Source of the DNA: an uncultured Candidatus Saccharibacteria bacterium
GTDB lineage: Bacteria > Patescibacteriota > Saccharimonadia > Saccharimonadales > JAUPVS01
Length of the DNA stretch: 64,000 nt
Assembly (NCBI GenBank): GCA_964410185.1
Contig: CAYPFM010000003.1
Location: forward strand, 150,119 to 214,118
Direction: 5' to 3'
Shown here piece after piece: positions 22,737 through 39,672 of the stretch (position 1 is the first letter of the stretch; each line of letters opens with the position of its first letter). A program made the translations under genes and the position numbers. The notes beneath the pieces were generated by a model. It saw nothing but the letters and a program-made list of their open reading frames with translations. It did not search any database and was not told where the DNA came from.

Positions 22737-22742
22737 GGCTAT

Positions 22743-22854: not shown

Positions 22855-22875
22855 AGGTGGCCATAAGGAGTTGGT

Positions 22876-24466: not shown

Positions 24467-24981
24467 AATCAACGACCGTACCCGCTCAAGTTACCACCGT
24501 TGAGGATAAAATTGCTGGTAACTTAAACCTCGCGCAGTTGTTGCTACTGGCTGCATCTGTGTTCGGTGGTTTTGCCTTGTATATCGTCGTACCGCCAATG
24601 ATGCACTTCTCGCTCATAAAGGTGATGCTGTGTCTGGTAATCATGCTGGTCTTTGCCTCATTAGCAATTCGGGTGCGGGGTCGAATCTTAGCGCTTTGGG
24701 TTGGCACGATTCTCCGTTATAACTTGCGACCACGCTACTACCTGTACGACAAGAACGATACCTACTTACGGGTGAGTGAGCAAGAAGCACCCAAGGAAGT
24801 AGCCGAAACCAATACAATCGAGGTTACAGATACGGATAAGCATTCAGCCTTAGATATTCCGATGAACAAACGTATCCAACTTGAAACAGTCATGGCTGAT
24901 CCAACTGCTCAGCTCGCCTTTGAAACCAATAAGAAAGGAGGTCTCCATGTTCGTATTACAGAAGTCAAACAAGAAAGTTAG
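24463..24981 (+). CDS. PrgI/VirB3-like small T4SS membrane protein
   Basis: VPAQVTTVEDKIAGNLNLAQLLLL N-terminus and two TM helices; ATGA overlap with the upstream gene. Confidence 0.45.
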   Translation: MKSTTVPAQVTTVEDKIAGNLNLAQLLLLAASVFGGFALYIVVPPMMHFSLIKVMLCLVIMLVFASLAIRVRGRILALWVGTILRYNLRPRYYLYDKNDTYLRVSEQEAPKEVAETNTIEVTDTDKHSALDIPMNKRIQLETVMADPTAQLAFETNKKGGLHVRITEVKQES

Positions 24982-25555
24982 CACCAGAAGACAAATTAAT
25001 ATTAAAGGTGTCCGTGACAATGTCCTATTGCTACCTAACCACCAGTACCGTTTAGTGTTAGATATTTCCTCGGTGAACTTTGAGCTCAAGAGTGAAGCTG
25101 AACAAGACGCATTGATTGATACCTATCAAAGTTTCTTAAATTCTCTCGGCTGTGATGTACAGATCATGGTACGTATTCGTGAGCTGGATATGGATAAATA
25201 CATTGCTGAGTTCACGTCCCGCATGAGAAATGAGGAAGAAACCATTTACAAAGAGCAACTCAAAAACTACACCTCTTTCGTCCGCGGCTTAATCCAGACA
25301 AACAAGATCTTAGCACGTCAGTTCTATATTGTGATTCCCACTTCTGGGAAGGATGAGTTTGACTTGATAAAAGAGCAGCTTCACCTGAATGCCGACATTA
25401 TCGCTAAAGGTTTGGCTCGCATGGGTATGCATAGTCGCCAACTAACCAGCCTCGAGCTTCTTGACCTGTTCTACAGCTTCTATAACCCCGGACAAGCTAA
25501 GCGCCAACCAATTACGAATCAAACCCTTGAGCTACTTAACAGGAGTTACCTATGA
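24947..25555 (+). CDS. VirB4-family ATPase, N-terminal domain encoded as a separate ORF
   Basis: Start moved to MFVLQKS (AAAGGAGG RBS). INIKGVRDNVLLLPNHQYRLVLDISSVNFELKSEAEQDALI is typical of Gram-positive VirB4/TraE N-termini. Confidence 0.6.
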   Translation: MFVLQKSNKKVSTRRQINIKGVRDNVLLLPNHQYRLVLDISSVNFELKSEAEQDALIDTYQSFLNSLGCDVQIMVRIRELDMDKYIAEFTSRMRNEEETIYKEQLKNYTSFVRGLIQTNKILARQFYIVIPTSGKDEFDLIKEQLHLNADIIAKGLARMGMHSRQLTSLELLDLFYSFYNPGQAKRQPITNQTLELLNRSYL

Positions 25556-27312
25556 AAATGCCAGATGTGACCAAGTTTGTAGACAAGAATAGTGCGATTG
25601 CGCAGTGGCAAAAGAAACGATCAGAGAAGCCCAAAGAACTTCGACTATTACTCGGTGAGCAAGATGCCATGGATGTACTTTCCTACGCAGGGCTGGAAGA
25701 GCAAGCTGATCACTTTGTAATTGATGGCCGGTATATGCGTGTTCTGTTTGTTTCGGGCTACCCATTCGTTGCTAGCTCCGGTTGGTTGAATAGCCTCGTG
25801 AACTTCAATCACAATGCGGATATTTCCTACCACATTGCCAGCGTTGATGCTACGCAAGCACTACCAAAATTACATCGCAAGATCACTGAACTGGAATCCA
25901 CTAAGCGTGCCTACATGCGTGTCGGTAAAATTATCGGGCCCGAAATCACTGATCCACTGGAATCAGCCACGCATTTACGAGATAAGATTCAGCGTGGTCA
26001 GGAAAAACTGTTTCAGGTCTCAATTTACGTGACATTGTCTGCCGATTCGATAACGGAACTCGATAAGACAACTAAATTACTGGAAACGGTTTTGTCAGCT
26101 CGCTTGTTCTATATTAAAACCGCACGCTACCAACAACTTGAGGCGTTGCAGTCTATTCTGCCCCGGGCTCAAGACATCCTGAATCAGAAACGTAACTTGG
26201 ATAGCTCATCTGCGGCGCTAACGTTTCCGTTTATGAGCTCCGAACTTGTGCAAGAATCGGGCATTTTGTATGGGGTAAACAAATCCAATAACTCATTGGT
26301 CATCTTAGATCGTTTCAGCCTCAATAACGCGAATAGCATCGTCTTTGCGCAGTCTGGGAGTGGAAAAAGCTACGCTACCAAAGTAGAAATCCTGAGACAG
26401 CTGATGCAAGGCACTAAGGTTATCGTGATTGACCCCGAACGAGAGTACAAAAGGTTAAGTGAATCAGTTAACGGAACGTATATTAAGTTATCGGCCAAAT
26501 CAAAGGAAAAGATTAATCCGTTTGACCTCTCTGCCACCTTCCACACTCGCAAAGATCTGTCTGAACATACTCAAGATTTAATTGAAGTGGTCTCGCTGAT
26601 GGCTGAAGGCTTAAGTCCTCGTGAAAAGGCGGCTGTCGATAAAGCCATTCTTAGGATCTATAGGACTGCGAAGAAGAAAACTCCATTACTGGAAGACCTG
26701 TACAAAGAACTCCATGTACTTGGACAAATTAAGCTCTGTGATCGCTTGGAGAAGTATATTAGCGGCTCATTGGCGGATGTCTTTAACGCACAGACAAATA
26801 TTAAGTTAGAAAACCGACTAGTAATCTTCGATATCAAGGACTTGCCGGAGTCTTTGCGGCAAATTATGATGATGATCATTTCCAACTTTGTAGCCAATCA
26901 GGTCAAAGCCAAGCCCGAAAAGCGCCTGTTGGTTATTGATGAAGGCTGGCTACTACTGGAGCACGAGGAATCGGCACGGTTTGTATCGGGCTTAGTCCGG
27001 CGTGCGCGCAAGTACTACCTCGGAGTCTCGATTATCTCCCAGCAAGCTAACGACTTTCTTAAGAACGACTACGGTCGCGCCATTGCCTCACAAAGTTCTT
27101 TACGTATTCTCATGCGCCAGGACACCACAACTATTAAGAATGTGGTCTCAGAGTTTCACTTGAGTGAATACGAGGAAAACTTTCTGCTGACGTGTGATAA
27201 GGGTGAAGCCTTAATTATTGCCGACCAGCACCATGTGGCCGTTAAAGTGGTCGCTTCAGGTAAAGAGCATCCTCTGATTACCACTAACCCCGCGGAGCTG
27301 TACCACCTATGA
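25552..27312 (+). CDS. virB4: VirB4-family T4SS ATPase (central and ATPase domains)
   Basis: Walker A FAQSGSGKSYATK, Walker B LLVIDEGW; ATGA overlap with the N-terminal-domain ORF. Confidence 0.85.
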   Translation: MKMPDVTKFVDKNSAIAQWQKKRSEKPKELRLLLGEQDAMDVLSYAGLEEQADHFVIDGRYMRVLFVSGYPFVASSGWLNSLVNFNHNADISYHIASVDATQALPKLHRKITELESTKRAYMRVGKIIGPEITDPLESATHLRDKIQRGQEKLFQVSIYVTLSADSITELDKTTKLLETVLSARLFYIKTARYQQLEALQSILPRAQDILNQKRNLDSSSAALTFPFMSSELVQESGILYGVNKSNNSLVILDRFSLNNANSIVFAQSGSGKSYATKVEILRQLMQGTKVIVIDPEREYKRLSESVNGTYIKLSAKSKEKINPFDLSATFHTRKDLSEHTQDLIEVVSLMAEGLSPREKAAVDKAILRIYRTAKKKTPLLEDLYKELHVLGQIKLCDRLEKYISGSLADVFNAQTNIKLENRLVIFDIKDLPESLRQIMMMIISNFVANQVKAKPEKRLLVIDEGWLLLEHEESARFVSGLVRRARKYYLGVSIISQQANDFLKNDYGRAIASQSSLRILMRQDTTTIKNVVSEFHLSEYEENFLLTCDKGEALIIADQHHVAVKVVASGKEHPLITTNPAELYHL

Positions 27313-27794
27313 ACTTAGTCGGCTACGTCTTTAAGAAATCGAAGTACGAACTGATGATTGTTTTAGCAGTCATCATTGTGTTGTTTTCAATGCCGGTCAT
27401 AGTACTGGCGGCTGTTTCTGATCTTGGGGCAATCGACACACATCCGCTCTATACCGAACCAGCTGACGGTCGTGATTTATATGACTACGGTAACTGTACC
27501 TATTGGGCAGCCTTGCGACGTATCCAGATTGGGCACCAAATACCCAACACCTGGGGCAATGCTAATACCTGGGCGGAGCGGGCAGCCCTTGACGGCTACC
27601 AGGTCGACCATAACCCCGCCGTAAACTCGATCATGCAAACCAGTGCCGGTTTCTACGGGCACGTTGCGTTCGTCGAAGCAGTAGATGAGCAGGGCAACTG
27701 GACAATCTCTGAGATGAACGTTATTGGCTATGATCAACTTGATACCAAGACGCTATCGCCAGCCATGGCCAAGTGGTTCTACTTTATTCACTAA
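27309..27794 (+). CDS. CHAP-domain peptidoglycan hydrolase (VirB1 analogue)
   Basis: TM anchor, catalytic Cys in GNCTYWAA and His in GHVAFVEAV. Confidence 0.75.
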   Translation: MNLVGYVFKKSKYELMIVLAVIIVLFSMPVIVLAAVSDLGAIDTHPLYTEPADGRDLYDYGNCTYWAALRRIQIGHQIPNTWGNANTWAERAALDGYQVDHNPAVNSIMQTSAGFYGHVAFVEAVDEQGNWTISEMNVIGYDQLDTKTLSPAMAKWFYFIH

Positions 27795-27804
27795 AGGAGG
27801 AGCT

Positions 27805-30411
27805 ATGCATATAATCGATCCGGTCTTCAATTTTTTGCACTCGGTAGCCTCGCTACTACCGATAATTGGTGTTTGTTTATTCTTGGCGGTTTTGGCGGCA
27901 ACAATTATATGGCTTTTGAGACGAGTGATTGCAGTTATTCATAACTTAAAAGTTGAAACAATCTATCTGGAGGTTACGCCACCTTCACAGACAGATAGGG
28001 CACCAATAGCCACCAACCAGCTATTCTCGGCTCTGCATGGGCTTGGCTTATCGCAAATCGGGTATAAACGGCTACTTGGTATAAAAAGTAGTTTTGCATT
28101 GGAGATTGTATCTAGCCGTAAAGATGGCATTCGATTTGTGTTTTGCGTGCCAGCCAACAAAGCCAAGACGGTGGAGCGCTCAATTATCTCCTATGTCCCG
28201 GATGTAAAAGTTAAAGCCATATCAGACTATTTGCCAGTGTTTTCACGGGCAAAAGTAGTCTCCTTTGTTCAGGCTAAACACTTCGCCTTCCCGCTTGCCG
28301 AGCATGAGACCCTAGACAGCCACGATCCAGTTGGTTATCTCACGAATGCCATGACAAAGCTCAGCGACAAGGAGCTCATGTCCTTCCAGCTTGTTTTAAC
28401 CCCGATGCGTAACCGCCAAGCCGAACGACTGCGTAACAAAATTCTGCATAACGAAGATTTGCTCTCAGCACTCGATAAAAAGCCGACACCATTGTCACCG
28501 CTTACTACGGCTCTAAATACCGTTCTTTTCAGCATGCTCGATACGGCATCCAGTGCATACCACGGGCCTTCAAGAACCGCACAAATGTCCGCCAGTCGTG
28601 ACCTTGAGTATAAGAAGCAGGTTGCTAAGAATATTAAACCGGTCCGTACCCTTAGTTACTTTGAGCACGAACTGGTGGAGTCAATTCACCGCAAACTCAG
28701 TCAGCCACTGTTCCATGCTGAAATACGTGTTGTGATTGCTTCAGACAGTAAAGAGGAAGTACGCCAACGCCGCAGCAATATTGTCTCTGCCCTCAATCTA
28801 CTCAATGTGCCCAAGTACCAAGCTCTGAAAGCTCGGCGTAATCACTTTGGCGTTATCCAGCGACTCAAACAGTATGTGTTTGTCAAAAGGTTGCCAGGGG
28901 TGTTTCGTTCTACTAATGTATTGTCCGCCTCCGAACTTTCAAGTCTATACCACTTCCCAAATAGCAAGTCAGCTAAGACGGAAAATGTTGTAAAGTCCCT
29001 AAGTAAAACATTACCCGCACCGATATCAATGAAGAATGGCAGCAAACTCGATATTATACTCGGAAGCAATGAACATCACGGCTCAGAGACACCAATTGGC
29101 CTTACTGAAGCGGAACGGCAAAGGCATCTTTATGTTATTGGTGGCACGGGCAATGGAAAAACTACTATGCTGCAGTATGCTATTGTTCAAGATATAAAGA
29201 ACGGCAAAGGCATAGCCGTGATAGATCCACATGGTGACCTCGTAGAAACAGTCCTACGTCACATCCCCAAAGAACGTATCAATGATGTCATCTACCTAAA
29301 CCCCGATGACCTAGACCGCCCGATCGGTATTAATCTATTGGAACTCGACCGAGATCTAGCTGGCGAGGAACTGCTGCGCGAAAAAGATCTTATCACTGAG
29401 TCCACGATTTCAGTTCTGCGAAAAATATTCTCTGAAGACGATAGCGGTGGCCACCGGATTGAATATATCCTACGCAACACCATCCAAACGGCTTTATCGT
29501 TGGAAGGAGCGACACTGTTTACTATTTTCCGTCTATTAAATGATGCCAAGTACCGACGTGGCGTTGTTAAAGGGCTCGACAATCAAGATCTCAAAGACTT
29601 CTGGAATAATGAGCTTGGTAAGGCTGGAGAGTTCCAACGTGTCAAGATGATCAGTGGTATTACCGCCAAAGTCGGACGATTCTTATTCTCTGCAAGTGCA
29701 AAGCGCATACTAGAACAAGAGAAGTCCAGTATAGATTTCAACGATATACTTGATTCAAAGAAAATACTGATTTGTAATTTCTCGAAGGGGTTGCTCGGAG
29801 AGGATACCTCGACACTATTCGGGACGACTGTACTTGCAAAACTTCAAGTTGCGTCGCTCCGTAGGGCTCGCCTACAACAAGCCAACCGTACGCCTTTTTA
29901 CCTTTACGTTGATGAGTTCCAGAACTTTGCCACAATGAGTTTTGTACAAATGCTGTCTGAAGCTCGAAAGTATAAATTGTTTCTAACGATGGCAGAGCAG
30001 TCTACTAGTCAGCAGGAACAACAACGCTTAGTAGACATCATCTTAGCTAATGTCGGTACGGTAGTCTGCTTCCGCTCCGGGAGCCCAGCAGATGAACGAC
30101 TGATATTGCCTCTCTTTTCTCCTTTTATTGAGCAGGGAGAAATTGCCAACCTCCCAGCCTACACCTTTTATGCTCGGGTTGCTGCCGTGCAAGCGCAGGA
30201 GCCAATGTCTGGTACCACTTTGCTACTCCAAGATGCTGATAATGAGGAGCTGGCTCAAAGAGCAATCAATTACTCTAGAAAAAACTACGGCAAGAAGGCA
30301 GCGGACGGTAAACCAAAGGCTGAAGAATCTTCTAGCTCGAAGGTGCAAATAAAAGAATCGGGAAAGTCAGCTACAATATCGCAGCCCGGTACCGCAGATG
30401 ATTTCATATAG
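27805..30411 (+). CDS. virD4: type IV coupling protein (VirD4/TraG/TraD family)
   Basis: Start moved to MHIIDPVF (AAAGGAGG RBS). N-terminal TM helices, Walker A VIGGTGNGKTT, Walker B FYLYVDEFQNF. Confidence 0.8.
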   Translation: MHIIDPVFNFLHSVASLLPIIGVCLFLAVLAATIIWLLRRVIAVIHNLKVETIYLEVTPPSQTDRAPIATNQLFSALHGLGLSQIGYKRLLGIKSSFALEIVSSRKDGIRFVFCVPANKAKTVERSIISYVPDVKVKAISDYLPVFSRAKVVSFVQAKHFAFPLAEHETLDSHDPVGYLTNAMTKLSDKELMSFQLVLTPMRNRQAERLRNKILHNEDLLSALDKKPTPLSPLTTALNTVLFSMLDTASSAYHGPSRTAQMSASRDLEYKKQVAKNIKPVRTLSYFEHELVESIHRKLSQPLFHAEIRVVIASDSKEEVRQRRSNIVSALNLLNVPKYQALKARRNHFGVIQRLKQYVFVKRLPGVFRSTNVLSASELSSLYHFPNSKSAKTENVVKSLSKTLPAPISMKNGSKLDIILGSNEHHGSETPIGLTEAERQRHLYVIGGTGNGKTTMLQYAIVQDIKNGKGIAVIDPHGDLVETVLRHIPKERINDVIYLNPDDLDRPIGINLLELDRDLAGEELLREKDLITESTISVLRKIFSEDDSGGHRIEYILRNTIQTALSLEGATLFTIFRLLNDAKYRRGVVKGLDNQDLKDFWNNELGKAGEFQRVKMISGITAKVGRFLFSASAKRILEQEKSSIDFNDILDSKKILICNFSKGLLGEDTSTLFGTTVLAKLQVASLRRARLQQANRTPFYLYVDEFQNFATMSFVQMLSEARKYKLFLTMAEQSTSQQEQQRLVDIILANVGTVVCFRSGSPADERLILPLFSPFIEQGEIANLPAYTFYARVAAVQAQEPMSGTTLLLQDADNEELAQRAINYSRKNYGKKAADGKPKAEESSSSKVQIKESGKSATISQPGTADDFI

Positions 30412-30757
30412 ATGGTTCTATCAAAGCAATCGCACCCAGCCCAGAATTTGGGGGTTGTACCCTTGGCTCGCGCACGAAGCTCGGCCCACCATCCTCTCCG
30501 TCCTCATCCTCAATCATAATCTCGATCAGATCCAAAGAATCAGGGCTTAAGTCAGCTAGGGAAACGACAAGATCATTTAGAGTCGTATCATCAAGGTCGT
30601 CAAAACTACCAATAATGTTTCGTTCCTCACGAAATGCATTTATTCGATTTTTCAATTCCTGAAAGCATTCTTCTTCGTCAAAGCTTCGTTGTTCGTCGGG
30701 TGTTTCATGAGAGCCTGCATCAAATTGCTCTTTTGCCATGCTTAAAGTATACGACAT
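30404..30757 (-). CDS. highly acidic small protein
   Basis: 117 aa, roughly 29% Asp+Glu (DDLDDTT..., IEIMIEDEDGEDGG); 8-nt convergent overlap with virD4. Confidence 0.45.
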   Translation of the reverse strand: MSYTLSMAKEQFDAGSHETPDEQRSFDEEECFQELKNRINAFREERNIIGSFDDLDDTTLNDLVVSLADLSPDSLDLIEIMIEDEDGEDGGPSFVREPRVQPPNSGLGAIALIEPSI

Positions 30758-30805
30758 TTGAATCTGCCTAGAAATGGCTAGAGATATCCGTTAACACTGT
30801 GAAAA

Positions 30806-30814
30806 TGGTATAAT
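30806..30814 (+). promoter_or_regulatory. extended -10 promoter, leaderless geometry
   Basis: TGGTATAAT-ATAGCT-ATG(30821). Confidence 0.45.
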
Positions 30815-30820
30815 ATAGCT

Positions 30821-31330
30821 ATGAGCGGCGAAATACGCAACAATGATGCATCTGAATACAAAAATCTTCGAGAGGAACCTCCCGAGAAGGTTGCGGAATT
30901 AGATAGTGTTCTGGGAGGGTTACTCAATAGCATACCTTATGAAATCCGCGTCAATCGAGAGACCTTCAATAACCCAAACAAGGTGAAGGTCTACGGTGCT
31001 CGTGTCGTTCGTCGTGAGGAAACACCGCCCGGAAGCCAGACAACCACCGGTATTATTCTACAAGAGAACGTTGACGCGGTTAAGATACGCTCGCATATGT
31101 TCCGACGGTTTCCACCCATCGAATGGTCTCGGCCAAGATATGTACTCGAATACTTTGAAGATAGGTCGGAACAAATGTCGATCGCTCGTGATAGCGTTAC
31201 GTTCTACTATGATCCTGGCTTTAGTATCATCGCTGGGGGTGACCCGCTCATTTACGAGCAGCTTGGCCTTGATCAAAAGGATCCGCTGGACGCCATGATT
31301 GAACTAGCACGAACTCTAGGCCCGCAATAG
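30821..31330 (+). CDS. hypothetical protein
   Basis: 169-aa ORF directly behind an extended -10 promoter. Confidence 0.5.
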   Translation: MSGEIRNNDASEYKNLREEPPEKVAELDSVLGGLLNSIPYEIRVNRETFNNPNKVKVYGARVVRREETPPGSQTTTGIILQENVDAVKIRSHMFRRFPPIEWSRPRYVLEYFEDRSEQMSIARDSVTFYYDPGFSIIAGGDPLIYEQLGLDQKDPLDAMIELARTLGPQ

Positions 31331-31356
31331 GTTTTATATTTGCAAGCTTGAGCAAC

Positions 31357-31953
31357 TTAGTCAGTTTGAGGTGTTTTGAGATAGGAAGAAATTGACCAAC
31401 TTTTCAGCGATGTGAGTTGTGCTGCACTCGCTGTACTAAACCGAAGTATTTTTTCTACATCTTCACGCTCTTCCTTACTATTGAAGATCAATAGTTCAGA
31501 CTTATGCGTGGTACGGTGGACTCTCCTCGTTGGCAGCACCTCAACAATTGTACTTAACACACCACCCCATTTACCGGTCATGTTTTGGAAGGCCTCATTC
31601 AGCGCAGCGTCTGACTCCGAAACATCGTTGCTGGCGGATGATTCAGATCGGACCTGTTCGGTAGCTAACATGCCAACAAGTGCAGCTTTTTTACGAAAGG
31701 CGTCTCCCAAGTGCCACGGTTATTCGATGCTAGCTCGGAGTGTATGGTTATCTCCATCAAGTGGCACGACAAATGGATTTTCAAGTCCTGTTACGTCCGG
31801 AACGGATATCCCGGGCATAGCGACGTAATCTAAGGTCAGGTGCGACCCGGCTAATCTATCACTTGGATGTTGGTCTTGTGCGGCGGCCTGTTCACCGAAC
31901 ACCAACACCTGCTGACGGGCTGCTTCATTCAGTTCAACGCGGTAGCTTAACAT
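31357..31953 (-). pseudogene. paralogue of 32000-32602 interrupted by one in-frame TAA
   Basis: ORFs 31720-31953 and 31357-31710 are in the same frame, separated by TAA at 31722-31720. Both halves align to the N- and C-terminal halves of the neighbouring 200-aa protein. Confidence 0.5.
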
Positions 31954-31999
31954 AGCTAAAGTCTCTCACTCCGCAATAGTATGCGCAAGCATATGCAAC

Positions 32000-32602
32000 T
32001 TAGTCTGTTTGAGACGATAAGCGGATTCCAAGATCTGGTAGGCGTACACTTGCAACAATTTCGGCAGGAGTCGCAACACCGCTTTCAAGTAACTGACTTA
32101 TTTGTTCGTACTCAGCTTCGCCTTCAAAAAGATAGAATTCCGCTATTCCCTCAGTATTCATATAATCACCGACAGGAACCAATCGAGCAACCGCCCTCAG
32201 AAAACCACCAGTGTCCAAAAATTCGTTAATAACTTCATTTAGTTCGACGGGTTGTCCCTCAAATAGTTCTTCGTCCTCGGTGGGTGCGTTATACCAGAAT
32301 GATTCGGCCGGTATTGTTCCGACAAATGATATCTGCTTCCAGTACGGCGCGTCACGCTTCTGCGGACAATCTACATGAACTACACTAACGCCAAACGACT
32401 CATCGTCCCCAATAAGTGGTACCCAAAAAGGTTTTTCAAGTCCTGACACATCAGGAACAGAAATGCCGGGTATATACATTTGATCAAGCGGCATGTAAAA
32501 GCTTCCCAGGACTGGGTCGCTGCCAAGTTCTCCAGCTTGCTCTCCAAGCAGCACTAAGCGCTCAAGACCAGTTTGATCAATTTCTGCAGGATGGTGAATC
32601 AT
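32000..32602 (-). CDS. hypothetical protein (intact paralogue)
   Basis: 200 aa; shares PGISVPDV(S/T)GLE.PF.VPL and the C-terminal ...QTD with the interrupted copy. Confidence 0.55.
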   Translation of the reverse strand: MIHHPAEIDQTGLERLVLLGEQAGELGSDPVLGSFYMPLDQMYIPGISVPDVSGLEKPFWVPLIGDDESFGVSVVHVDCPQKRDAPYWKQISFVGTIPAESFWYNAPTEDEELFEGQPVELNEVINEFLDTGGFLRAVARLVPVGDYMNTEGIAEFYLFEGEAEYEQISQLLESGVATPAEIVASVRLPDLGIRLSSQTD

Positions 32603-32690
32603 GTGTGTAGCCTCTCACTCTATTCTTTCGCAAGCAAACATGAGTTGTTTGTTGAGTACTGATAAAAGTACACATCGCTAAACTTTCGAA

Positions 32691-33065
32691 CTATTCCGTT
32701 TCAAAAACAGGATGCAATTCGTACCTTTTAAATTCTGAAAAGGCAACAGCCACACCTCTATCGTCACAGTCGGCTAGGTTGCAAACGGCTTTTACTTGGC
32801 CATCATACAAAGTATTTTGTTCAACTAAGCTAACACCCGAGCACTTGAGTCCACATTTGCCAGCCCCGCTACAGGCATTACGACCAATCCACTCAGCAGT
32901 GAGTGTAATATTTTTGACCGCATGAGGAGCCTCAGCTTCATAACTGTCTGCTGCGGTGTATCTTTGCTCAACATTTTTCTCGACTGCTGCAACCATTTCG
33001 TCATGCGTATATACTAATCCGGCGCTTGATGTGCGCACTATGTTCGGCTCGATTTCGTGACCCAT
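32691..33065 (-). CDS. hypothetical Cys-rich small protein
   Basis: 124 aa; TTGCAA-N17-GAATAT promoter and AAGGAG RBS upstream. Confidence 0.5.
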   Translation of the reverse strand: MGHEIEPNIVRTSSAGLVYTHDEMVAAVEKNVEQRYTAADSYEAEAPHAVKNITLTAEWIGRNACSGAGKCGLKCSGVSLVEQNTLYDGQVKAVCNLADCDDRGVAVAFSEFKRYELHPVFETE

Positions 33066-33180
33066 AATGTCTCCTTCTAATGCCTATATTCGCCTAATTC
33101 GCAAAAATTTGCAAGCATGAGCAATTTGTTGAACAGTATGCAAAGTACAAACCACTAAGTCTGGTTTTAAAACTTCGAAA

Positions 33181-33534
33181 CTACCCTATTTCAACAAGAG
33201 GACTTAGTACGTATATTCCAACCCGCATCCCCATGTCCGAGGCCTCAGCATCAGTGCTTATTTGTCCGTTTTCTTTCATAGCATTGCCGATGATTACATC
33301 TGCCGCGGGGATAACTCCAGTTGGCAACACGACACTTCCGTCTTCCGCAATCATTTCTTCCAATGATGCAACGAGTTTTCGGGTTCGAGCATCCGGTATA
33401 GCATGGCGGGCTATATCAATATGGTAATATGCTCCGTAAACACCGCTTGAGTTTACAAGATGCTCCCAGCCGTATTTCTGGGCTTCACCAGAGGCCCAAG
33501 TTTCAGGGGTTGGTCGTACGTCATGAAAAACCAT
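33181..33534 (-). CDS. hypothetical protein
   Basis: 117 aa; own promoter (next feature). Confidence 0.5.
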   Translation of the reverse strand: MVFHDVRPTPETWASGEAQKYGWEHLVNSSGVYGAYYHIDIARHAIPDARTRKLVASLEEMIAEDGSVVLPTGVIPAADVIIGNAMKENGQISTDAEASDMGMRVGIYVLSPLVEIG

Positions 33535-33541
33535 AGATACA

Positions 33542-33570
33542 ATTATCTAGCAGTCGAACTTTCGAAGCAA
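33542..33570 (-). promoter_or_regulatory. promoter, leaderless geometry
   Basis: Minus strand TTGCTT-N17-GATAAT-N7-ATG(33534). Confidence 0.45.
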
Positions 33571-33599
33571 GCATAAGCAGCAGCTAAACTGCTAAAGAG

Positions 33600-33968
33600 T
33601 TAGTCTATGCTTGGTTGAGTAGGTGGTGTGTCAATTGCTCGATGCAATGCAGCCAAATCGTTAAGATGACTGTACTCCTCGTTTTCATTCTCTGCAGACG
33701 CATCTGCAAGTTGCGCACGGGAACCGAGTGCACGTGCCATCGAATCTTTTGCGGCATCGGTTGCGATGAGACCGTCAGTTAAAACGTCCTTGAGCAGTCC
33801 TTTGGGTGTCAGTACCGATTTAAGGAAGTCTGCATCAAAAGATATTTCTATTCTGACAGTTGCATCAACAACACTTCTGGCAAGTGCAGTATAGACGTCT
33901 ACAGGCGTCATTTTTTGACCCTCTTCTTGTCCAAATAATTCAATGGCGATATCACGCTCTCTCGACAT
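33600..33968 (-). CDS. hypothetical acidic protein
   Basis: 122 aa ORF; TACTAT -10-like hexamer 6 nt upstream of the ATG. Confidence 0.5.
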   Translation of the reverse strand: MSRERDIAIELFGQEEGQKMTPVDVYTALARSVVDATVRIEISFDADFLKSVLTPKGLLKDVLTDGLIATDAAKDSMARALGSRAQLADASAENENEEYSHLNDLAALHRAIDTPPTQPSID

Positions 33969-34094
33969 GAACCTATAGTAACAAATAAGCCGCGTTTCAA
34001 AAGTGCTTATGGATAACCTCTATTAATGCTCGATTCAATTTCGTGAAGTATGCGATGCATGAATGCGCCAAGACGGCTAGGTTTTTGCTTAAGC

Positions 34095-34122
34095 TTGCAA
34101 ATTATGTTGAATAGTTTAAAAT
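34095..34122 (+). promoter_or_regulatory. promoter
   Basis: AAGCTTGCAA-N16-TAAAAT, then an AGGAG RBS before ATG 34143. Confidence 0.45.
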
Positions 34123-34142
34123 CCAGTGAAATAGGAGATTCT

Positions 34143-34784
34143 ATGGCTAGTGAATTTGAAACCCGGATACACGAACGAAAAAACACACTCATTGTAGCCA
34201 AGGCAACTGCGGGTATTTTGAAGCTGTCAGGTTGTGAGCCACAGATCTTTAGTAATTCTGGTACCCGACCAATATTTGAAGCAAGAGCCAGAGGAATTCT
34301 TCGTATTCGTGAAGCAGTTGAGGTGGGTCAAGAATCGTTCGAAGACGTTGTTTCGAGCGGTTGGATGCTTACCAAACACATAACGAGCAACAACGAACAT
34401 GCTTCGACAGAAGAAATGGTTGTCTTAGAACACGACGGTGATTTAGCGGTAGTTGGACGTACTTCCTCATTTGTCGTTGGAAATGGGTACTTCCGAACTG
34501 GTGCTATTGGTATGCCAGGCGAAGAGGTAGATTACCCCGATTACGAGATTTCGAGAGATGGCCGCCGTCGTACGCGCGTATTGATTACAGAGTCCGAGAT
34601 ACAACAGAAATTAGCTCGATTAGTGGTGCAAGATGACTTACATATAGGTACGCCTTTTGAGCAGGCTCTTGCTGAATTAGATCAAGGCTATAGCGTCGTT
34701 GAACCGGTTGTCGGGGGTGACGACCCGCTAGAGGTTGTAAGGACTATCCCTATGCCCCTACCACCACTCTCTCCGCGCTCCTGA
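34143..34784 (+). CDS. hypothetical protein
   Basis: Start moved to MASEFETR behind the RBS; 213 aa. The 3' end carries repeat R1. Confidence 0.5.
   Translation: MASEFETRIHERKNTLIVAKATAGILKLSGCEPQIFSNSGTRPIFEARARGILRIREAVEVGQESFEDVVSSGWMLTKHITSNNEHASTEEMVVLEHDGDLAVVGRTSSFVVGNGYFRTGAIGMPGEEVDYPDYEISRDGRRRTRVLITESEIQQKLARLVVQDDLHIGTPFEQALAELDQGYSVVEPVVGGDDPLEVVRTIPMPLPPLSPRS
34671..34768 (+). repeat. 98-nt direct repeat R1 (inside the 3' end of the CDS)
   Basis: About 90% identical to 35243-35340. Confidence 0.8.
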
Positions 34785-34867
34785 TTTAGCCAACCTCGAT
34801 ATAAGTAAGACACTTCGAGCATAGTCGTTATGAAATACCCGTCCATGGATTTGTATTTTGCTTGTGC

Positions 34868-34896
34868 TTGCAAATAGTAAACTCGAGCTAGATAAT
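34868..34896 (+). promoter_or_regulatory. promoter, leaderless geometry
   Basis: GTGCTTGCAA-N17-GATAAT-N7-ATG(34904). Confidence 0.45.
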
Positions 34897-34903
34897 GCGC
34901 CTT

Positions 34904-35188
34904 ATGAACGAGGATATATTGTCCAGCTACGAGCAAGAATATAAAGCAACTCAAGAAGAGATCCATCATACCATAATTACTAAAAAACTTGGGTATCTTG
35001 GGATAGTATTTGGTGTAATAGGAGAGATCGGCGGGTTCCTGCTTGATAATCCCGGAATGATGTACATTAATGGCATAGCGTTAACTGTAGCCGCAGGTGC
35101 AGTACACCTATCAAACAAACGGATTAATACTCACGAACAAATCATCGACGATATGCGTGTTCTCTCTCAGCTTGAACAGGAATTTTGA
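34904..35188 (+). CDS. small two-TM membrane protein
   Basis: The ORF-track start 34895 overlaps the -10, so ATG 34904 is preferred. LGYLGIVFGVIGEIGGFLL and INGIALTVAAGAVHL helices. Confidence 0.45.
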   Translation: MNEDILSSYEQEYKATQEEIHHTIITKKLGYLGIVFGVIGEIGGFLLDNPGMMYINGIALTVAAGAVHLSNKRINTHEQIIDDMRVLSQLEQEF

Positions 35189-35242
35189 AGCATTTCTTTC
35201 GTGTTTGTAAATACCTCAATTTGTAAAAGAACAGGTCTTAAT

Positions 35243-35340
35243 GCTGGATTAGATCAAGGCTATAGCGTCGTTGAACCAGTTGTCAGGGGTGACGACCCCC
35301 TAAAAGTTATACGGACTATCCCTACGCCCCTACCACCACT
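35243..35340 (+). repeat. 98-nt direct repeat R2 (non-coding 3' gene remnant)
   Basis: Would translate to AGLDQGYSVVEPVVRGDDPLKVIRTIPTPLPPL but has no start codon upstream. Confidence 0.8.
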
Positions 35341-35366
35341 TCAGCACGGCTAACCAAGACGTCAAC

Positions 35367-35395
35367 TTGTAATAATATCATATTCGTGATATTAT
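35367..35395 (+). promoter_or_regulatory. promoter, leaderless geometry
   Basis: TTGTAA-N17-TATTAT-N7-ATG(35403). Confidence 0.45.
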
Positions 35396-35402
35396 ATATT
35401 TT

Positions 35403-35906
35403 ATGTCAGATATACTTTCGCGAGTAATTGAAACGAAGGAAGCCCGATATCGCTTTTTAGATAAAGAAGCAGCCGAACTTTTTCAAGCTGAAAAAAATAG
35501 AGCTCTCGGGCTATTCAAAAGTATCATTCGTGGCCGAGAGTACACGGAAGCAACAGTTATCAGTGGCACAGGAGGGTTGTCGCGACAGTACCAGTCAATA
35601 GCTTTTGGCACTCAAACCGTTCGGGGTAAAGAACAAAATGTTTTTATAGAGCCGTCTATACTGCAGAGGGATCTTGCGGCAGAGTTTCCTACTCATATTT
35701 CTCTCACAGCTCTCGTAGCAGAGTCTGCGGGAGTACTCTATCCTCGTAGTCAACACGGATATCATATGCCCGCTACCGGTTATGAAGTCGCGAACTTTGT
35801 ACTCACAGATAAAATGGGTCAATTCGGGCTTACACAAGCTGAGATGGACGCTGTAAACGACTTCAATGGCACTGCCCAAGCAATTGCTGAAATCATACAA
35901 GTATAA
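35403..35906 (+). CDS. hypothetical protein
   Basis: 167-aa ORF. Confidence 0.5.
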   Translation: MSDILSRVIETKEARYRFLDKEAAELFQAEKNRALGLFKSIIRGREYTEATVISGTGGLSRQYQSIAFGTQTVRGKEQNVFIEPSILQRDLAAEFPTHISLTALVAESAGVLYPRSQHGYHMPATGYEVANFVLTDKMGQFGLTQAEMDAVNDFNGTAQAIAEIIQV

Positions 35907-36015
35907 CGAGTGGATGGATTCGTACTGCCTATAAAGCATTACGTGTCGGCCTCAATCACACCACACCTTAGCGTAGGACTAGCAAAAAAGTTAGGTACCT
36001 TCGAGATGCTTTTGC

Positions 36016-36044
36016 TTGCAACCAAATACGGATAGTATCATAAT
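36016..36044 (+). promoter_or_regulatory. promoter
   Basis: TTGCTTGCAA-N17-CATAAT; about 50-nt leader with a GAAGGAG RBS. Confidence 0.45.
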
Positions 36045-36096
36045 TTGTTTTATAAAACCGAGATCCGTAAAGGTTATTATAGAAGGAGTTTTTGTT

Positions 36097-36381
36097 ATGT
36101 CCGAACAAAATAGAGCTGGTGAAGGCTTTATGTCACGCGATGATATAAGTGATGATGCCAAAGCACATTTATTTGGCACAATTGAGGTAGATTACGACAA
36201 TAAGTGCGGCGTATTTGAGGTAGATGCGAACAAAGACCCAGATGCCGTTATAGTAACAGTCGGTCCTAATACAGATCTTTCAGACCCAGACAAATTGGTT
36301 ACAGAAATCGATGGGCGCCCTGTCATGTATGATCGTGCAGAAGACATGCCAGAACTGCTCGTATTTCCTGAGGGAGAATAG
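36097..36381 (+). CDS. small acidic hypothetical protein
   Basis: Start moved to MSEQNRAGEG behind the RBS; 94 aa. Confidence 0.5.
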   Translation: MSEQNRAGEGFMSRDDISDDAKAHLFGTIEVDYDNKCGVFEVDANKDPDAVIVTVGPNTDLSDPDKLVTEIDGRPVMYDRAEDMPELLVFPEGE

Positions 36382-36388
36382 TGCTTCT

Positions 36389-36736
36389 ATGCCCGGTGCC
36401 ATAACTATAGACCCACAGGCAAGTGAATTGCTCGCTAGTATAGCATCATCAGTTCCGTTACCTTTTGGCGAACACGACATAAGCGCACGAACCCTGGAAT
36501 ATGAGTCCATTGCCAAAGCTATTGGCGAACGCCTTGCTTCAGGTGTAGTTTTTGATGGTCAAGATCAAGCTGCAACACCAAATGATCTACTGGAAGCGAT
36601 TACTGTTACCGCAGGTTCCATGCTGACGATAGATAACCCAAATTTATCTCGCTTTATAAACGATGAAGCGGCCGTAGCTTATGCCGGAATGGTGTATCAA
36701 ACTTGCGTTGGTGCGTTTGCTTTGGGGCAAGCATAA
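36389..36736 (+). CDS. hypothetical protein
   Basis: Start moved to MPGAITIDPQ; 115 aa, 7 nt after the upstream stop. Confidence 0.45.
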   Translation: MPGAITIDPQASELLASIASSVPLPFGEHDISARTLEYESIAKAIGERLASGVVFDGQDQAATPNDLLEAITVTAGSMLTIDNPNLSRFINDEAAVAYAGMVYQTCVGAFALGQA

Positions 36737-36755
36737 ACACAAACGAACATTTCTA

Positions 36756-37613
36756 TTAACTTCGTTCTGTAGCGGCTTCGATTTCTAGAGCTACTGGGTC
36801 TTTTTCGTCAATCAGCTGATCGTAGGGGTCTGTCGGTAGCTTACTTTCGTAGGACTCTAATAATTTAGCGAATAGGTCGGTCACACCAAATATGGTTGTC
36901 AGACGGTTAAGGTGATGTGCCACATCAAATCGGGCAAATTCAGCATTGGAAATACCATCTACATAAGGCATCGCAAAATCGCTTTTGATTGACGAAACGC
37001 CACTATACATACGTGACAGCACGTTGCCGCCCAAAAAACCGACACTTGTGCTTGTGCTATTCTTGGAGTCGACGATCAAAGAACCAGATTTTTTATCAAA
37101 CAACTCTGTAATTTCGTCATCAGTGTATGAACTGTGTAAGCGTTCAGCTAAACGTTGATCAATGCTTGGCAGATCTTTAGTCTTGACGGTTACACTTTGT
37201 ACACGATTATCAAGGCCGGTTGCCGTTGGTGGCTGCAGAAGTAGATCGGTCTTGCTTTCGGATTGTTGGGCACGTCCAACGATGAAGAACGGACGAGCAC
37301 GTCCGTAATGGGTTAGATTATACCAAAGTACTGATGATTGAAGCGCCTGGGCAGTGTAAACATCTTCTACGGAAAATACTTGTGTATACCCACTGCCAAC
37401 TTCATCCGTATGTGGAAGCAAATCAATGGTGTCGCGCACAAGAGCCGCATTGGCATAGGCATGTTCGGCTTCATACTTTAGGGCCTCCAATGTCCGGGCG
37501 GGCTTAGACAGCTCACCAGCTAAAAGCTCACGAACTTGTTCGTAGTGAGGTGACATCTCCCCTGCATATACATCGAGGCCTTGGCGCGCTAATTCAATAC
37601 TTGGTTGATTCAT
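36756..37613 (-). CDS. hypothetical protein
   Basis: Start moved to MNQPSIELAR, consistent with the promoter geometry; 285 aa. Confidence 0.5.
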   Translation of the reverse strand: MNQPSIELARQGLDVYAGEMSPHYEQVRELLAGELSKPARTLEALKYEAEHAYANAALVRDTIDLLPHTDEVGSGYTQVFSVEDVYTAQALQSSVLWYNLTHYGRARPFFIVGRAQQSESKTDLLLQPPTATGLDNRVQSVTVKTKDLPSIDQRLAERLHSSYTDDEITELFDKKSGSLIVDSKNSTSTSVGFLGGNVLSRMYSGVSSIKSDFAMPYVDGISNAEFARFDVAHHLNRLTTIFGVTDLFAKLLESYESKLPTDPYDQLIDEKDPVALEIEAATERS

Positions 37614-37617
37614 CACT

Positions 37618-37646
37618 ATAATAGCATAAGCGTGTACTATTGTCAA
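37618..37646 (-). promoter_or_regulatory. consensus promoter, leaderless geometry
   Basis: Minus strand TTGACA-N17-TATTAT-AGTG-ATG(37613). Confidence 0.5.
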
Positions 37647-37700
37647 TATCTGTCGTTCTGTTCTCTATGTTTAAATCAAGAACGAGCTGACAGGTTGATT

Positions 37701-37970
37701 TTAGCTGCGATCGGGTGGAATTATCTCATCAAAGGAGTCGAGTGCAGCCTGAAACCTTTGAATATAGTCATCAGTCGGCTCACTGTCTAAACTCTGACTA
37801 GACGCATCATCAATTGAAACAAGTGCGGCTTGGAATCGTTTCTCCTCATCTTCAGACGATTTGCCGTCCAGGCTAGGCCAGCCTCCTCTTGGACCATCAA
37901 GTATCCAAGCACCAATTTGGTATCTTGGCTCCGAGGTATGGAATTCTGGTTGGAGTCTTTTCTCACTCAT
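37701..37970 (-). CDS. small acidic protein with an internal repeat
   Basis: 89 aa; KRFQAALVSIDD and QRFQAALDSFDE repeat. Confidence 0.45.
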   Translation of the reverse strand: MSEKRLQPEFHTSEPRYQIGAWILDGPRGGWPSLDGKSSEDEEKRFQAALVSIDDASSQSLDSEPTDDYIQRFQAALDSFDEIIPPDRS

Positions 37971-37972
37971 AA

Positions 37973-38446
37973 TTAGGCATCCTTATCAATTTTGGAAATT
38001 GCTTGGTCGATATCGGTCTCCTCCCGAGCTAAATTTCCATCTCTATATATTGTTTTACGCTTATATGACTCTCTTAGCAATTCTACACCATTTGCTTTGA
38101 TTATCTTTCGCAGTCCGGGTGAGCACATAAAGCCCGAGGCGTCACTTGTATTTTTAGGATAGCCGTAAGCTGGCATAATTTGTCGAACCTCTGGGTCAGT
38201 TAGTGTGTAACCTCGCCTCATGATCTCTGCTATAACACGTCCTAATCGTAACCGTCCTGGGTTTGCCGAATGATGGTCAGGGCCACTTTGGGTCAAAGGC
38301 TCTTCGCTTTGTATCCCACCTAAGTGATGTACCGTGGTTGTATCCACCTCAGTATGAGGAATGTCTGCATTGCCGGGGTTAGCCAATGCTAAATTATCAT
38401 CTACATTACGCATTGACAAAGGCTGGTCTGATTCAGCTGAGATCAT
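37973..38446 (-). CDS. hypothetical protein
   Basis: ATG 38446 (MISAESDQ) preferred over the TTG at 38455; the stop lies 2 nt from the next start. Confidence 0.45.
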   Translation of the reverse strand: MISAESDQPLSMRNVDDNLALANPGNADIPHTEVDTTTVHHLGGIQSEEPLTQSGPDHHSANPGRLRLGRVIAEIMRRGYTLTDPEVRQIMPAYGYPKNTSDASGFMCSPGLRKIIKANGVELLRESYKRKTIYRDGNLAREETDIDQAISKIDKDA

Positions 38447-38555
38447 AGAATACAAAGTATCACACCCCTGGTGTTTAATAAATCAGTTATGGTTGAAGCA
38501 AGTAAAACTGCACTTTAGTACTTAGATGAAGACATTTGGGTGCCATTAGGGCAGT

Positions 38556-39047
38556 CTAATTATTTGAACCGTGTCGGGCGGCAAAACATTCGGTAAGATT
38601 ATCGAGCATCCACGCAGCCACATAGTTCATTCCACCAAACTCATCAATCCCTGCCAGATCGTCTTTCTTAGCTAGACTTAACCAAGTAATCTCGTCACTC
38701 GGACCCTTCGTGTTACCAACGTTTTCAGTGATACGGCCACTCTGAAAAATATTCATTTTTACAGCACCCCAACCGCCTTCGGCGTGATATGCGGATACTA
38801 TCTCTATAACCGGTTCGTCTGGCGATCGTTCGTTATACAGATCGATGGAACGACGCATAGTAGGATCTTCCGGGACAGGCACTTCAATACCTCGCTGGAT
38901 GACCCTACCATGGCGATCGGTCACAATATCAACATCCTCATGGGTTAGTACTTCTTGAGATATTAGAGAAATTAAAGCAGTCGCTAAGACTTTTTGTCTT
39001 TCGAGCCCGAACAGGCCTTCTATTGGATTTGGTTCACCAAGAGACAT
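38556..39047 (-). CDS. hypothetical protein
   Basis: Start moved to MSLGEPNPIE because the track start falls inside the -35 hexamer; 163 aa. Confidence 0.5.
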   Translation of the reverse strand: MSLGEPNPIEGLFGLERQKVLATALISLISQEVLTHEDVDIVTDRHGRVIQRGIEVPVPEDPTMRRSIDLYNERSPDEPVIEIVSAYHAEGGWGAVKMNIFQSGRITENVGNTKGPSDEITWLSLAKKDDLAGIDEFGGMNYVAAWMLDNLTECFAARHGSNN

Positions 39048-39054
39048 TAACAAT

Positions 39055-39083
39055 ATAGTAAAACCATTCCAAGTAACTGTCAA
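39055..39083 (-). promoter_or_regulatory. consensus promoter, leaderless geometry
   Basis: Minus strand TTGACA-N17-TACTAT-N7-ATG(39047). Confidence 0.5.
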
Positions 39084-39423: not shown

Positions 39424-39672
39424 TTACTGATTATCAGGTACTTCGGGAGCACCCGTTGTATCATGTTGATCTCCTTCCTGGACATTGTCGTTATCCGCTT
39501 TACCTTTATCGTTTGCTTCGCTTTGACTAGATTCGTTCTTAACCGTGGGCTGTGGTTGCGATTGAACTGGGTTTGACGGCGGAGTCTGTGCATGTACCTG
39601 TGACATAGCGACCGCTCCGCTTCCACCTAAAATTGCTAGTGTTGCAGCGAATGCAAGTAATCGTTTCTTCAT
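39424..39672 (-). CDS. small secreted Pro/Gln-rich protein
   Basis: Signal peptide MKKRLLAFAATLAILGGSGAVAMSQVHAQ. Confidence 0.55.
   Translation of the reverse strand: MKKRLLAFAATLAILGGSGAVAMSQVHAQTPPSNPVQSQPQPTVKNESSQSEANDKGKADNDNVQEGDQHDTTGAPEVPDNQ

Follow-up and report, generated by a model that had tools for sequence, protein, structure and literature searches.

In a 64,000-nucleotide stretch of the contig CAYPFM010000003.1 (positions 150,119 to 214,118) from an uncultured Candidatus Saccharibacteria bacterium, which as a whole is called the window here, the gene for the type IV coupling protein (T4CP) of a type IV secretion system (T4SS) is followed by an island of small genes (30404-39083), and this island, together with a 19-nt promoter box that recurs in it, is the subject of this report (Table 1). 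An initial annotation, made from the letters of the sequence, had described small, acidic orphan open reading frames (ORFs) on both strands behind the T4CP and this description is borne out, as there are 17 ORFs of 77 to 285 amino acids (aa) in the island. When an ORF just outside it (39424-39672) is included, 17 of 18 island ORFs have an isoelectric point (pI) below 6 compared to 15 of the 59 ORFs elsewhere in the window, and the median length of the 18 is 120 aa compared to 232 aa for the other 59. The GC content at third codon positions (GC3) is 0.38 in the island and 0.50 in the rest of the window, and throughout the island ORFs the GC content is higher at the first than at the second codon position, which is the pattern of coding DNA. 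The content of Asp and Glu reaches 21-26% in g30404, g36097 and g37701.

None of the island proteins matched an entry in Pfam, PADLOC or NCBIfam, and in PHROGs there was only one marginal hit (0.008). When the proteins were compared by tblastn with 22 related T4SS loci there was no match for any of them, and the island has no blastn match in collections of plasmids and phages. In a collection of 15 billion proteins their clusters at 90% identity have one or two members each. Comparison of the island proteins with each other by blastp yielded a single paralogue pair, g31720 with the N-terminus of g32000, and the C-termini of the proteins are dissimilar. A Sec-type N-terminus is not visible in any of the 17 translations, in contrast to the ORF at 39424-39672, which alone in this stretch appears to encode a secreted product, and a hydrophobic segment is found only in g34904. 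The ratio of nonsynonymous to synonymous substitution rates (dN/dS) was 0.11-0.44 in ten comparisons with strain variants from short public contigs and because of these values, and also because g32000 belongs to a family of 26 members and has a confidently predicted fold, we regard the island ORFs as real genes. Judged from their sequences, the island proteins are cytoplasmic, acidic, lineage-restricted and under purifying selection.

The family of g32000 was collected by a profile search of 1.84e9 representatives and most of its 26 members are 190-217 aa long, with conserved PGISVP...PF.VP..GD and GGFL motifs in the alignment. Two relatives with known context lie among housekeeping genes, away from T4SS. 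Structure prediction, which had been proposed as a way of recognising DNA-mimic, immunity or effector folds, gave a confident AlphaFold2 (AF2) model of g32000 (mean predicted local distance difference test score, pLDDT, 87.8; predicted template modelling score, pTM, 0.85) and no match to a known fold: the best Foldseek hit of the model in PDB and BFVD had an E-value of 0.09 with a template modelling (TM) score of at most 0.23, and the best hit of the family profile among PDB sequences had an E-value of 0.72. For g36756 the AF2 model, built from two sequences, had a pLDDT of 30.8 and was not used. As a separate observation, residues about 29-72 of g32000, which hold the PGISVP...PF.VP..GD motif, match 15 DUF5978 repeats of P0030 (summed E-value 5.9e-15), a 1721-aa LPXTG surface protein of Gram-positive type, and g32000 itself has no Pfam hit to DUF5978.

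Table 1. Coordinates of the features of the locus, given as window positions; L numbers denote sequences of relatives.
Feature	Position	Strand	Properties
Type IV coupling protein (VirD4/TraD-like)	27724-30411	+	Left anchor of the variable region; Pfam T4SS-DNA_transf, TrwB_AAD_bind, TraG-D_C
g30404, 117 aa, pI 4.1, 25% Asp+Glu	30404-30757	-	No box; L048 homologue, dN/dS 0.13, different neighbourhood
g30821, 169 aa	30821-31330	+	Canonical TGnTATAAT promoter, leaderless (sequence)
Box copy GTTGCTCAAGCTTGCAAAT	31338-31356	-	27.5 bits; relic promoter with no gene behind it, pointing at the 3' end of g30821; by repeat D3 a paralogue of the 31981-31999 junction
g31720 (77 aa) and g31357 (117 aa)	31357-31953	-	Likely split or diverged paralogue of g32000; g31720 38% identical to its N-terminus (blastp, E 2e-16); 3' end of g31357 matches 3' end of g32000 at DNA level (repeats D2 and D3)
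Box GTTGCATATGCTTGCGCAT	31981-31999	-	17 bp to TGnGAGACT; ATG 6 nt on, leaderless; kept in strain contig L046 as GTTGCTTGTGCTTGCACAT
g32000, 200 aa, pI 4.1	32000-32602	-	Small uncharacterised family (profile search; AF2 model)
Degenerate box CTCATGTTTGCTTGCGAAA	32626-32644	-	Upstream of g32000; 13.5 bits; spacer to GAGGCT 4 nt shorter; orthologous site in L046 is a regular box with 17-bp spacer
g32691, 124 aa	32691-33065	-	Cys-rich, acidic; dN/dS 0.36 against L046
Consensus box ATTGCTCATGCTTGCAAAT	33107-33125	-	0 mismatches, 27.0 bits; 17 bp to GAATAT; Shine-Dalgarno leader
g33181, 117 aa	33181-33534	-	dN/dS 0.13 against L048
Box GCTGCTTATGCTTGCTTCG	33563-33581	-	17 bp to GATAAT; ATG 7 nt on, leaderless; kept in L048
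g33600, 122 aa	33600-33968	-	Acidic; no box (sequence)
Box TTTGCTTAAGCTTGCAAAT	34084-34102	+	16 bp to TAAAAT; Shine-Dalgarno leader
g34143, 213 aa	34143-34784	+	Sequence
Direct repeats of 99 nt, 91% identical	34670-34768 and 35242-35340	+	Bracket a box and g34904; last 99 nt of g34143, repeated after g34904; putative insertion or replacement scar
Box TTTGCTTGTGCTTGCAAAT	34857-34875	+	17 bp to GATAAT; ATG (34904) 7 nt on, leaderless
g34904, 94 aa	34904-35188	+	Hydrophobic, transmembrane-hairpin-like segment (translation)
g35403, 167 aa	35403-35906	+	TTGTAA-17-TATTAT canonical leaderless promoter, no box; dN/dS 0.44
Box GATGCTTTTGCTTGCAACC	36005-36023	+	17 bp to CATAAT; 75-nt leader
g36097 (94 aa, 26% Asp+Glu) and g36389 (115 aa)	36097-36736	+	Bicistronic pair; dN/dS 0.11-0.36
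g36756, 285 aa	36756-37613	-	Canonical TTGACA-17-TATTAT promoter; orphan; only known variant is an 86% strain variant
g37701 (89 aa), g37973 (160 aa), g38556 (about 162-175 aa)	37701-39083	-	Acidic orphans, no box (sequence)
ORF of 82 aa	39424-39672	-	Just outside the island; signal-peptide-like N-terminus (MKKRLLAFAATLAILGGSGAVAMSQVHA), low-complexity acidic tail
Histidine kinase and OmpR-family response regulator	46638-48315	-	In the cargo stretch; response regulator (47632-48315) is the sole DNA-binding regulator found near the island; Pfam
Replic_Relax protein (PF13814, MOBC-type relaxase family)	49645-50430	-	N-terminal MarR-like winged helix-turn-helix; Pfam E 1.5e-9, 38.7 bits, cut-off 25.3
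Large serine recombinase (integrase)	50802-52298	+	Right end of the ICE-like locus; Pfam Resolvase, Recombinase, Zn_ribbon_recom
tRNA-Gln	52379-52452	-	Directly after the integrase; ARAGORN and Rfam

The 19-nt box

The initial annotation had pointed to a recurrent GCTTGC motif in the spacers of the island and all eight of its cores are present at the positions and on the strands it gave, but the copy at 31340 lies in a gap between convergent genes and is not upstream of either. As a special mark the short motif did not hold. Although GCTTGCAA occurs 12 times in the window compared to 4.0 expected, with 5 of the 12 within 31340-36021, WGCTTGC is not enriched window-wide (32 compared to 25.7 expected) and GCTTGC is found 42 times inside genes outside the island. 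Within the island, 8 of the 10 copies of GCTTGC fall into 1.7 kb of spacer, and this intergenic concentration is significant. Ordinary promoters of the window use TTGCnn as their -35 hexamer, such as TTGCAA at 3256 and 48942, TTGCGC at ackA, and TTGCTC, TTGCTA, TTGCAG and TTGCAT elsewhere. Because TTGCnn is a common -35 and GCTTGC is frequent inside genes, the bare core is unremarkable and for the most part represents the usual -35 of the genome. The motif had also been said to be missing from the other promoters that could be read in the window, whereas GCTTGC is present in the ackA promoter (acGCTTGCGC) and upstream of 3256-3870 and of 57794-58228; what stands is that none of these is preceded by A or T. 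Similarly, of the three shared aaactttcgaa blocks one is exact (32680-32690), one has 1 mismatch (33556-33566) and the third (33169-33179) reads aaaacttcgaa, which is one t short. This 11-mer is no more frequent than expected by chance and belongs to a longer inter-cassette repeat, D4.

The box proper is 19 nt long, has sharp edges and reads nTTGCTyATGCTTGCAAAT. Taken as a 16-mer with up to 3 mismatches, the box has 6 matches in the window where 0.88 are expected, and 5 of them lie within 31340-36021. It is present at 6 of 15 island promoters and at none of the 26 other promoters (Fisher p = 0.0011), and its upstream half, TTGCTyAT, is likewise absent from all 26. At 33107, 34084, 34857 and 36005, where the box precedes unrelated genes, the similarity ends exactly at the box edges, which argues for constraint rather than recent duplication, while 31338/31981 and part of 32626/33107 sit in paralogous repeats (D3 and D4). 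The only strong box-like match outside the island is ACGATCATGCTTGCAAAT (14107-14122, minus strand, 18.2 bits); this site, which falls within the gene 13529-14395 and precedes a gene with a PPDK_N domain by about 540 nt, may be due to chance or be an internal promoter.

The view that the motif is promoter-proximal and that TTGCAA or TTGCTT serves as -35 is upheld by a -10-like hexamer 16-17 bp further on, followed by an ATG. A good -10 at this distance is present at 5 of the 8 window boxes. An alignment of 17 sites on the box shows A at -11 in 15 and T at -7 in 12 of the hexamers that lie 17 bp behind TTGCAA, and their first position (-12) is G in 9 of the 17 and T in only 1. The -10 hexamers of the untagged island promoters and of housekeeping promoters begin with T, as in g30821 (TATAAT), g35403 (TATTAT), g36756 (TATTAT) and g38556 (TTGACA-17-TACTAT). 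Because of this difference in the first -10 position, the data hint that the box promoters form a separate class with a GAnAAT-type -10. In eight cases the ATG is only 6-9 nt past the -10, from which leaderless mRNA is predicted, and otherwise there is a leader with AGGAG. The box is therefore predicted to be a sigma-70-type promoter element. Its sequence also includes a dyad, TGC-N8-GCA, and a direct repeat, TTGC-N6-TTGC. The window ORFs that were scanned did not include a sigma factor.

Box and cassettes in relatives

A position weight matrix (PWM) built solely from the window sites was used to scan 44 Saccharibacteria T4SS loci (641 kb). The idea that the box is general to such loci was rejected, as there were 5 hits compared to 4.9 expected. 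In L003, the closest relative with downstream sequence (VirB4 92% and T4CP 68% identical), the box matches at two sites with 19 bits or more, where 0.4 are expected in the whole 641 kb. These sites, located 50 and 884 nt behind the T4CP, are followed by an acidic ORF of 123 aa and a ResIII-type helicase of 1032 aa. Motif-tagged genes near the T4SS of relatives, which had been suggested as a check, are thus found in L003 but are not enriched over the 44 loci. L003 also encodes, downstream of its T4CP (17713-19947, minus strand), a 744-aa protein of the sigma-70 family (regions 1.2, 2 and 4), in which the N-terminus is extended by a long acidic stretch. The protein has no homologue in the window or the other loci and could be a primary or a cargo-encoded sigma factor.

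In the strain contigs the box stands in front of cassettes found in the window and also of different ones: it precedes an 82-aa gene in L048 and a 125-aa gene in L051, and L046 has it at three sites. Directly upstream of the g32000 homologues in L045 (46% identity) and L047 (26%) there are box hits of 16.3 and 15.3 bits, the expectation being about 5e-4 per 100 nt, and the neighbours of these two homologues are housekeeping genes. Because of this distribution over L003, the strain contigs and L045/L047, the box is best assigned to a cellular regulatory system and not to the T4SS locus as such. Compared with the strain variants, the box is retained where the synonymous divergence (dS) has reached about 0.7, whereas the spacer beside it has changed. 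The proposal that the motif marks a distinct promoter class or regulon is in this way sustained, in the form of the extended box (6 of 15 compared to 0 of 26 promoters) that is kept before non-homologous genes in strains and in L003.

The order and content of the cassettes differ between strains, and the breakpoints of homology are at or beside the box. In L046 the region homologous to the window sets in about 30 nt before the g32691 box, and the neighbouring gene upstream is a different one. The homology with L048 extends from the 3' end of g33181 through the spacer to the box, beyond which L048 has a different gene, and the L048 homologue of g30404 is elsewhere and in opposite orientation. 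In L051, a promoter homologous to the one at 36005 drives an extra 125-aa gene. Two further sequences recur in the array: TAG-TT(T)CGAA(A)GT, which is a 3' element, and D4, an inter-cassette repeat about 50-75 nt long. Two cargo spacers of L001 (4090-4160 and 4835-4900) share an element of about 70 nt, …ACTTTCTTATnCCTyTTAAGTGTACGTCTAGAACCTGrGCTrGCAAGGTAGTACA…, which adjoins a box-like site (4177-4189, minus strand).

The frame of the locus

The assignment of 27724-30411 as a T4CP was correct by its Pfam domains, the match to T4SS-DNA_transf scoring 30.4 bits (cut-off 20.1), while the NCBIfam matches to TraD and CD1115 were all under their cut-offs. Its relatives are 52-68% identical and come nearly all from metagenome-assembled genomes of Saccharibacteria/Patescibacteria, and upstream of it are genes that by Pfam encode two VirB2-type pilins, PrgI, VirB4 and a CHAP hydrolase. 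Because of these relatives and upstream genes, the window is read as holding a Saccharibacterium T4SS of the monoderm type. VirB4 is divided over two overlapping ORFs, 24881-25555 (N-terminal match to TraC_F_IV) and 25552-27312 (the P-loop part), which may be a natural split or a frameshift.

At the other end of the locus, the product of 49645-50430 is a predicted MOBC-family relaxase, since the Replic_Relax family PF13814 corresponds to MOBC relaxases (PMC5357655). Homologues of it are downstream of the T4CP in 9 relatives. The serine recombinase is 48-62% identical to those at the matching relative position in L001, L010, L034 and L008, and integrase followed by tRNA-Gln is also found in L001 and L010. 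The tRNA-Gln gene is a probable integration site. The order T4CP, variable genes, Replic_Relax (minus strand), recombinase (plus strand) and tRNA is repeated in L001, L002, L010 and L013, a partial version of it (Replic_Relax downstream of the T4CP) is present in L004, L008, L012 and L034, and the gap from T4CP to relaxase gene varies from about 2.3 to 19.2 kb. In a comparison of attachment (att) repeats around the tRNA there was one 13-nt match (near 19883 and 52299), which is expected by chance; serine integrases do not require long att repeats. The rest of the cargo consists of MprF-C, an esterase, an ABC-2 transporter, the two-component system, PAP2 and a histidine phosphatase. MprF was considered as a conserved right anchor of the island and was rejected, as there is no MprF homologue in the flanks of the relatives, where the 498-aa basic proteins are serine recombinases.

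The locus thus has the genes of an integrative and conjugative or integrative and mobilizable element (ICE/IME) backbone: a VirD4/TraD-type coupling protein, a PF13814 relaxase gene and an end integrase beside a tRNA. By this gene content the island is the T4CP-proximal part of the variable cargo in an ICE-like, tRNA-flanked T4SS locus, which the initial annotation had overlooked. A survey has found that most patescibacterial T4SS clusters are without a relaxase, and MOBC relaxases close to t4cp had already been counted there in Patescibacteria (PMC12102498). In contrast to this general description of relaxase-less T4SS, the present Saccharibacteria clade (also L001, L002, L010 and L013) appears to have a T4SS with a complete ICE-like frame.

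Directly to the left of the T4SS pilin genes there is a small defence cluster (19982-22875), in which an Mrr-type nuclease (19982-20530) adjoins a Drt2-like antiviral reverse transcriptase (21022-22335, minus strand; NCBIfam NF041746, E 1.1e-89, 301.6 bits, under the curated cut-off of 390). The 540-nt non-coding gap upstream of the latter (22336-22875) could house its non-coding RNA; Rfam at the gathering threshold has no match there. Further left, a 77-nt direct repeat, 78% identical, at 18200-18276 and 19694-19770 is unexplained; one copy is intergenic and the other is inside a doubtful 125-aa ORF (pI 11.5), near a drop in GC3 that is a possible left edge of the element.

Interpretation and known systems

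The explanation that we favour, with moderate confidence, is that the island is hypervariable cargo of a chromosomal ICE-like T4SS locus and is made up of self-contained cassettes, about half of them on a dedicated box promoter. The locus would run from the pilins through VirB4, CHAP hydrolase, T4CP and cargo to a MOBC-type relaxase, a serine integrase and tRNA-Gln, and a cassette would consist of a promoter, one or two small genes and a weak hairpin. About half of the cassettes would use one promoter class, in which the last hexamer of the 19-bp box is the -35 and is followed after 17 bp by the GAnAAT-type -10. The box would be read by a single trans-acting factor and, because of this, the cassettes would be switched together; the factor may be an activator or an alternative sigma factor that acts on an extended -35, or a repressor that binds the TGC-N8-GCA dyad. 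The repeated box and the inter-cassette element would supply the homology for cassette exchange by recombination. The products may act in the interaction of the epibiont with its host, as T4SS cargo or in protection, and this is the weakest step.

Several points weigh against this explanation. The proteins have no link to secretion, as they have no common domain or C-terminal signal and the relatives of g32000 are away from T4SS. The minus-strand sites resemble each other partly through paralogy (repeats D3 and D4), the -10 is poor or a downstream gene is missing at three of the eight window sites (31338-31356, 32626-32644 and 31981-31999), and the -10 hexamers were assigned by eye. No trans factor for the box was identified, only the OmpR-type regulator and the MarR-like N-terminus of the relaxase being nearby; the OmpR-type regulator has no box at its own promoter and the promoter of the pilin/T4SS operon (22876) has none at >=12 bits. 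As there was no enrichment across the 44 more distant loci the box is lineage-restricted, and its specificity applies to what was scanned, 64 kb of this genome and fragments.

Among the roles considered for the products, effector or host-interaction roles are, only weakly, the most likely of the effector, immunity and anti-defence options. It is possible but unlikely that the T4SS beside the island delivers the cassette products into the host bacterium as its effectors, with recruitment through the T4CP next to them. The island is directly behind the T4CP, no Sec signal peptide is visible in any of the 17 products, and their diversity at strain level is as expected of host-interaction genes. 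In a cultivated Saccharibacterium the T4SS is essential for epibiotic growth, and neither its substrates nor its regulators have been described there (PMC10633639). Nevertheless, the products share no C-terminal motif or domain and have no sequence sign of translocation, the T4SS promoter is without the box, so that there is no sign of co-regulation with them, and family members in other genomes are unlinked to T4SS. A repertoire of T4SS substrates, as had been suggested from the position behind the T4CP, may apply, with this position as its only positive evidence, but it is at odds with the missing common signal, the T4SS promoter without a box and the housekeeping contexts of the g32000 homologues. 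We consider doubtful the wider proposal that the box marks a regulon of proteins which are delivered by the T4SS or induced by contact with the host, the first such regulon to be recognisable in Saccharibacteria, with effector cassettes switched together and diversified by recombination at the box and with the g32000 family as a conserved core member.

That there is no regulon, and that an ordinary TTGCnn -35 and leftovers of duplication, seen across many monocistronic genes, only appear as enrichment, is quite unlikely. It would agree with the TTGCnn -35 at seven or more non-island promoters (GCTTGC at three of them), with the unenriched WGCTTGC and the frequent GCTTGC in genes elsewhere, and with the paralogous repeats around 31340/31983 and 32628/33109. 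It does not account for the TTGCTyAT half, which all 26 non-island promoters lack, for the similarity of 33109, 34085, 34858 and 36006 that stops at the box edges before unrelated genes, for the box being kept amid a diverging spacer, or for its recurrence in L003 and upstream of g32000 homologues that are 26-46% identical. We find it improbable that the cassettes form an array of orphan immunity proteins directed at host or competitor toxins. Acquired interbacterial defence (rAID) clusters are on mobile elements and have repeated intergenic sequences, which is reminiscent of the island, and small, acidic, cytoplasmic and mutually unrelated proteins, shuffled cassettes separated by a repeated sequence on an element that carries a recombinase, and purifying selection together with rapid turnover would all fit such an array. 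However, no immunity family was matched in Pfam, there are no toxin genes or fragments nearby, and the recombinase is the serine integrase of the element, 12 kb away, and not a cassette recombinase. A leading-region-type anti-defence set (DNA mimics, anti-restriction) expressed early after transfer, which had also been suggested, is very improbable because, although the locus has a T4SS, a T4CP, a MOBC-family relaxase gene and an integrase, the gene content varies among strains and several products are very acidic, the genes are on both strands and not co-oriented, a distance of 10.5-19 kb with housekeeping-like cargo (MprF, ABC transporter, two-component system) separates them from the relaxase gene, no ArdA, Ocr, SSB, PsiB or other match was found in Pfam or PHROGs, the promoters are of the ordinary double-stranded -35/-10 type, and relatives of g32000 are in non-mobile contexts.

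The array of shuffling, box-tagged cassettes in the cargo of an ICE-like T4SS locus is a real feature and partly new. It provides a short list of co-promoted, strain-variable cytoplasmic proteins beside a T4CP that can be tested for translocation or for protective, host-interaction roles, and the defined cis element is a handle for fishing its regulator and for finding regulon members in other genomes. The clade with a full ICE frame (T4CP, MOBC-family relaxase, serine integrase and tRNA) bears on whether the T4SS still moves DNA. Should the proteins prove to be ordinary cargo under a common promoter, what is left is a modest contribution on the plasticity of Saccharibacteria genomes.

The known backbone to which the locus may be compared is class 8 of the streptococcal IMEs, with a VirD4 coupling protein, a PF13814 (MOBC) relaxase and a serine integrase (Coluzzi et al. 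2017, PMC5357655). The three signature genes are in identical order here, with non-conserved genes between them and probable integration next to a tRNA. Unlike in class 8, the present module is contiguous with a complete and highly conserved T4SS (VirB4 77-92% identical among relatives), and its cargo is 19 kb long. With the leading-region islands of plasmids and ICEs the present island has in common small, acidic orphan genes on a conjugative-type element, but its genes are not co-oriented or adjacent to the relaxase, and no known anti-defence genes or single-stranded DNA promoter features were seen. As in integron arrays, small, unrelated genes are rapidly exchanged and a short spacer sequence recurs at the breakpoints. 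In contrast to integrons, there is no IntI tyrosine recombinase and there are no attC-like imperfect palindromes, only a serine recombinase, and the cassettes are on both strands with their own promoters, the recurring sequence being a promoter at the 5' end. Finally, in the virB/virD4/bep locus of Bartonella the effector genes are clustered directly downstream of virD4 and are co-regulated by a two-component system, and the Beps are large proteins that share BID/FIC domains and a charged C-terminal signal. Whereas the present cassettes are small and unrelated, share no domain and have a box that is off the T4SS promoter, they resemble the bep locus in that lineage-specific genes, some of them paralogous, lie behind a coupling protein with individual promoters and a shared regulatory signal.

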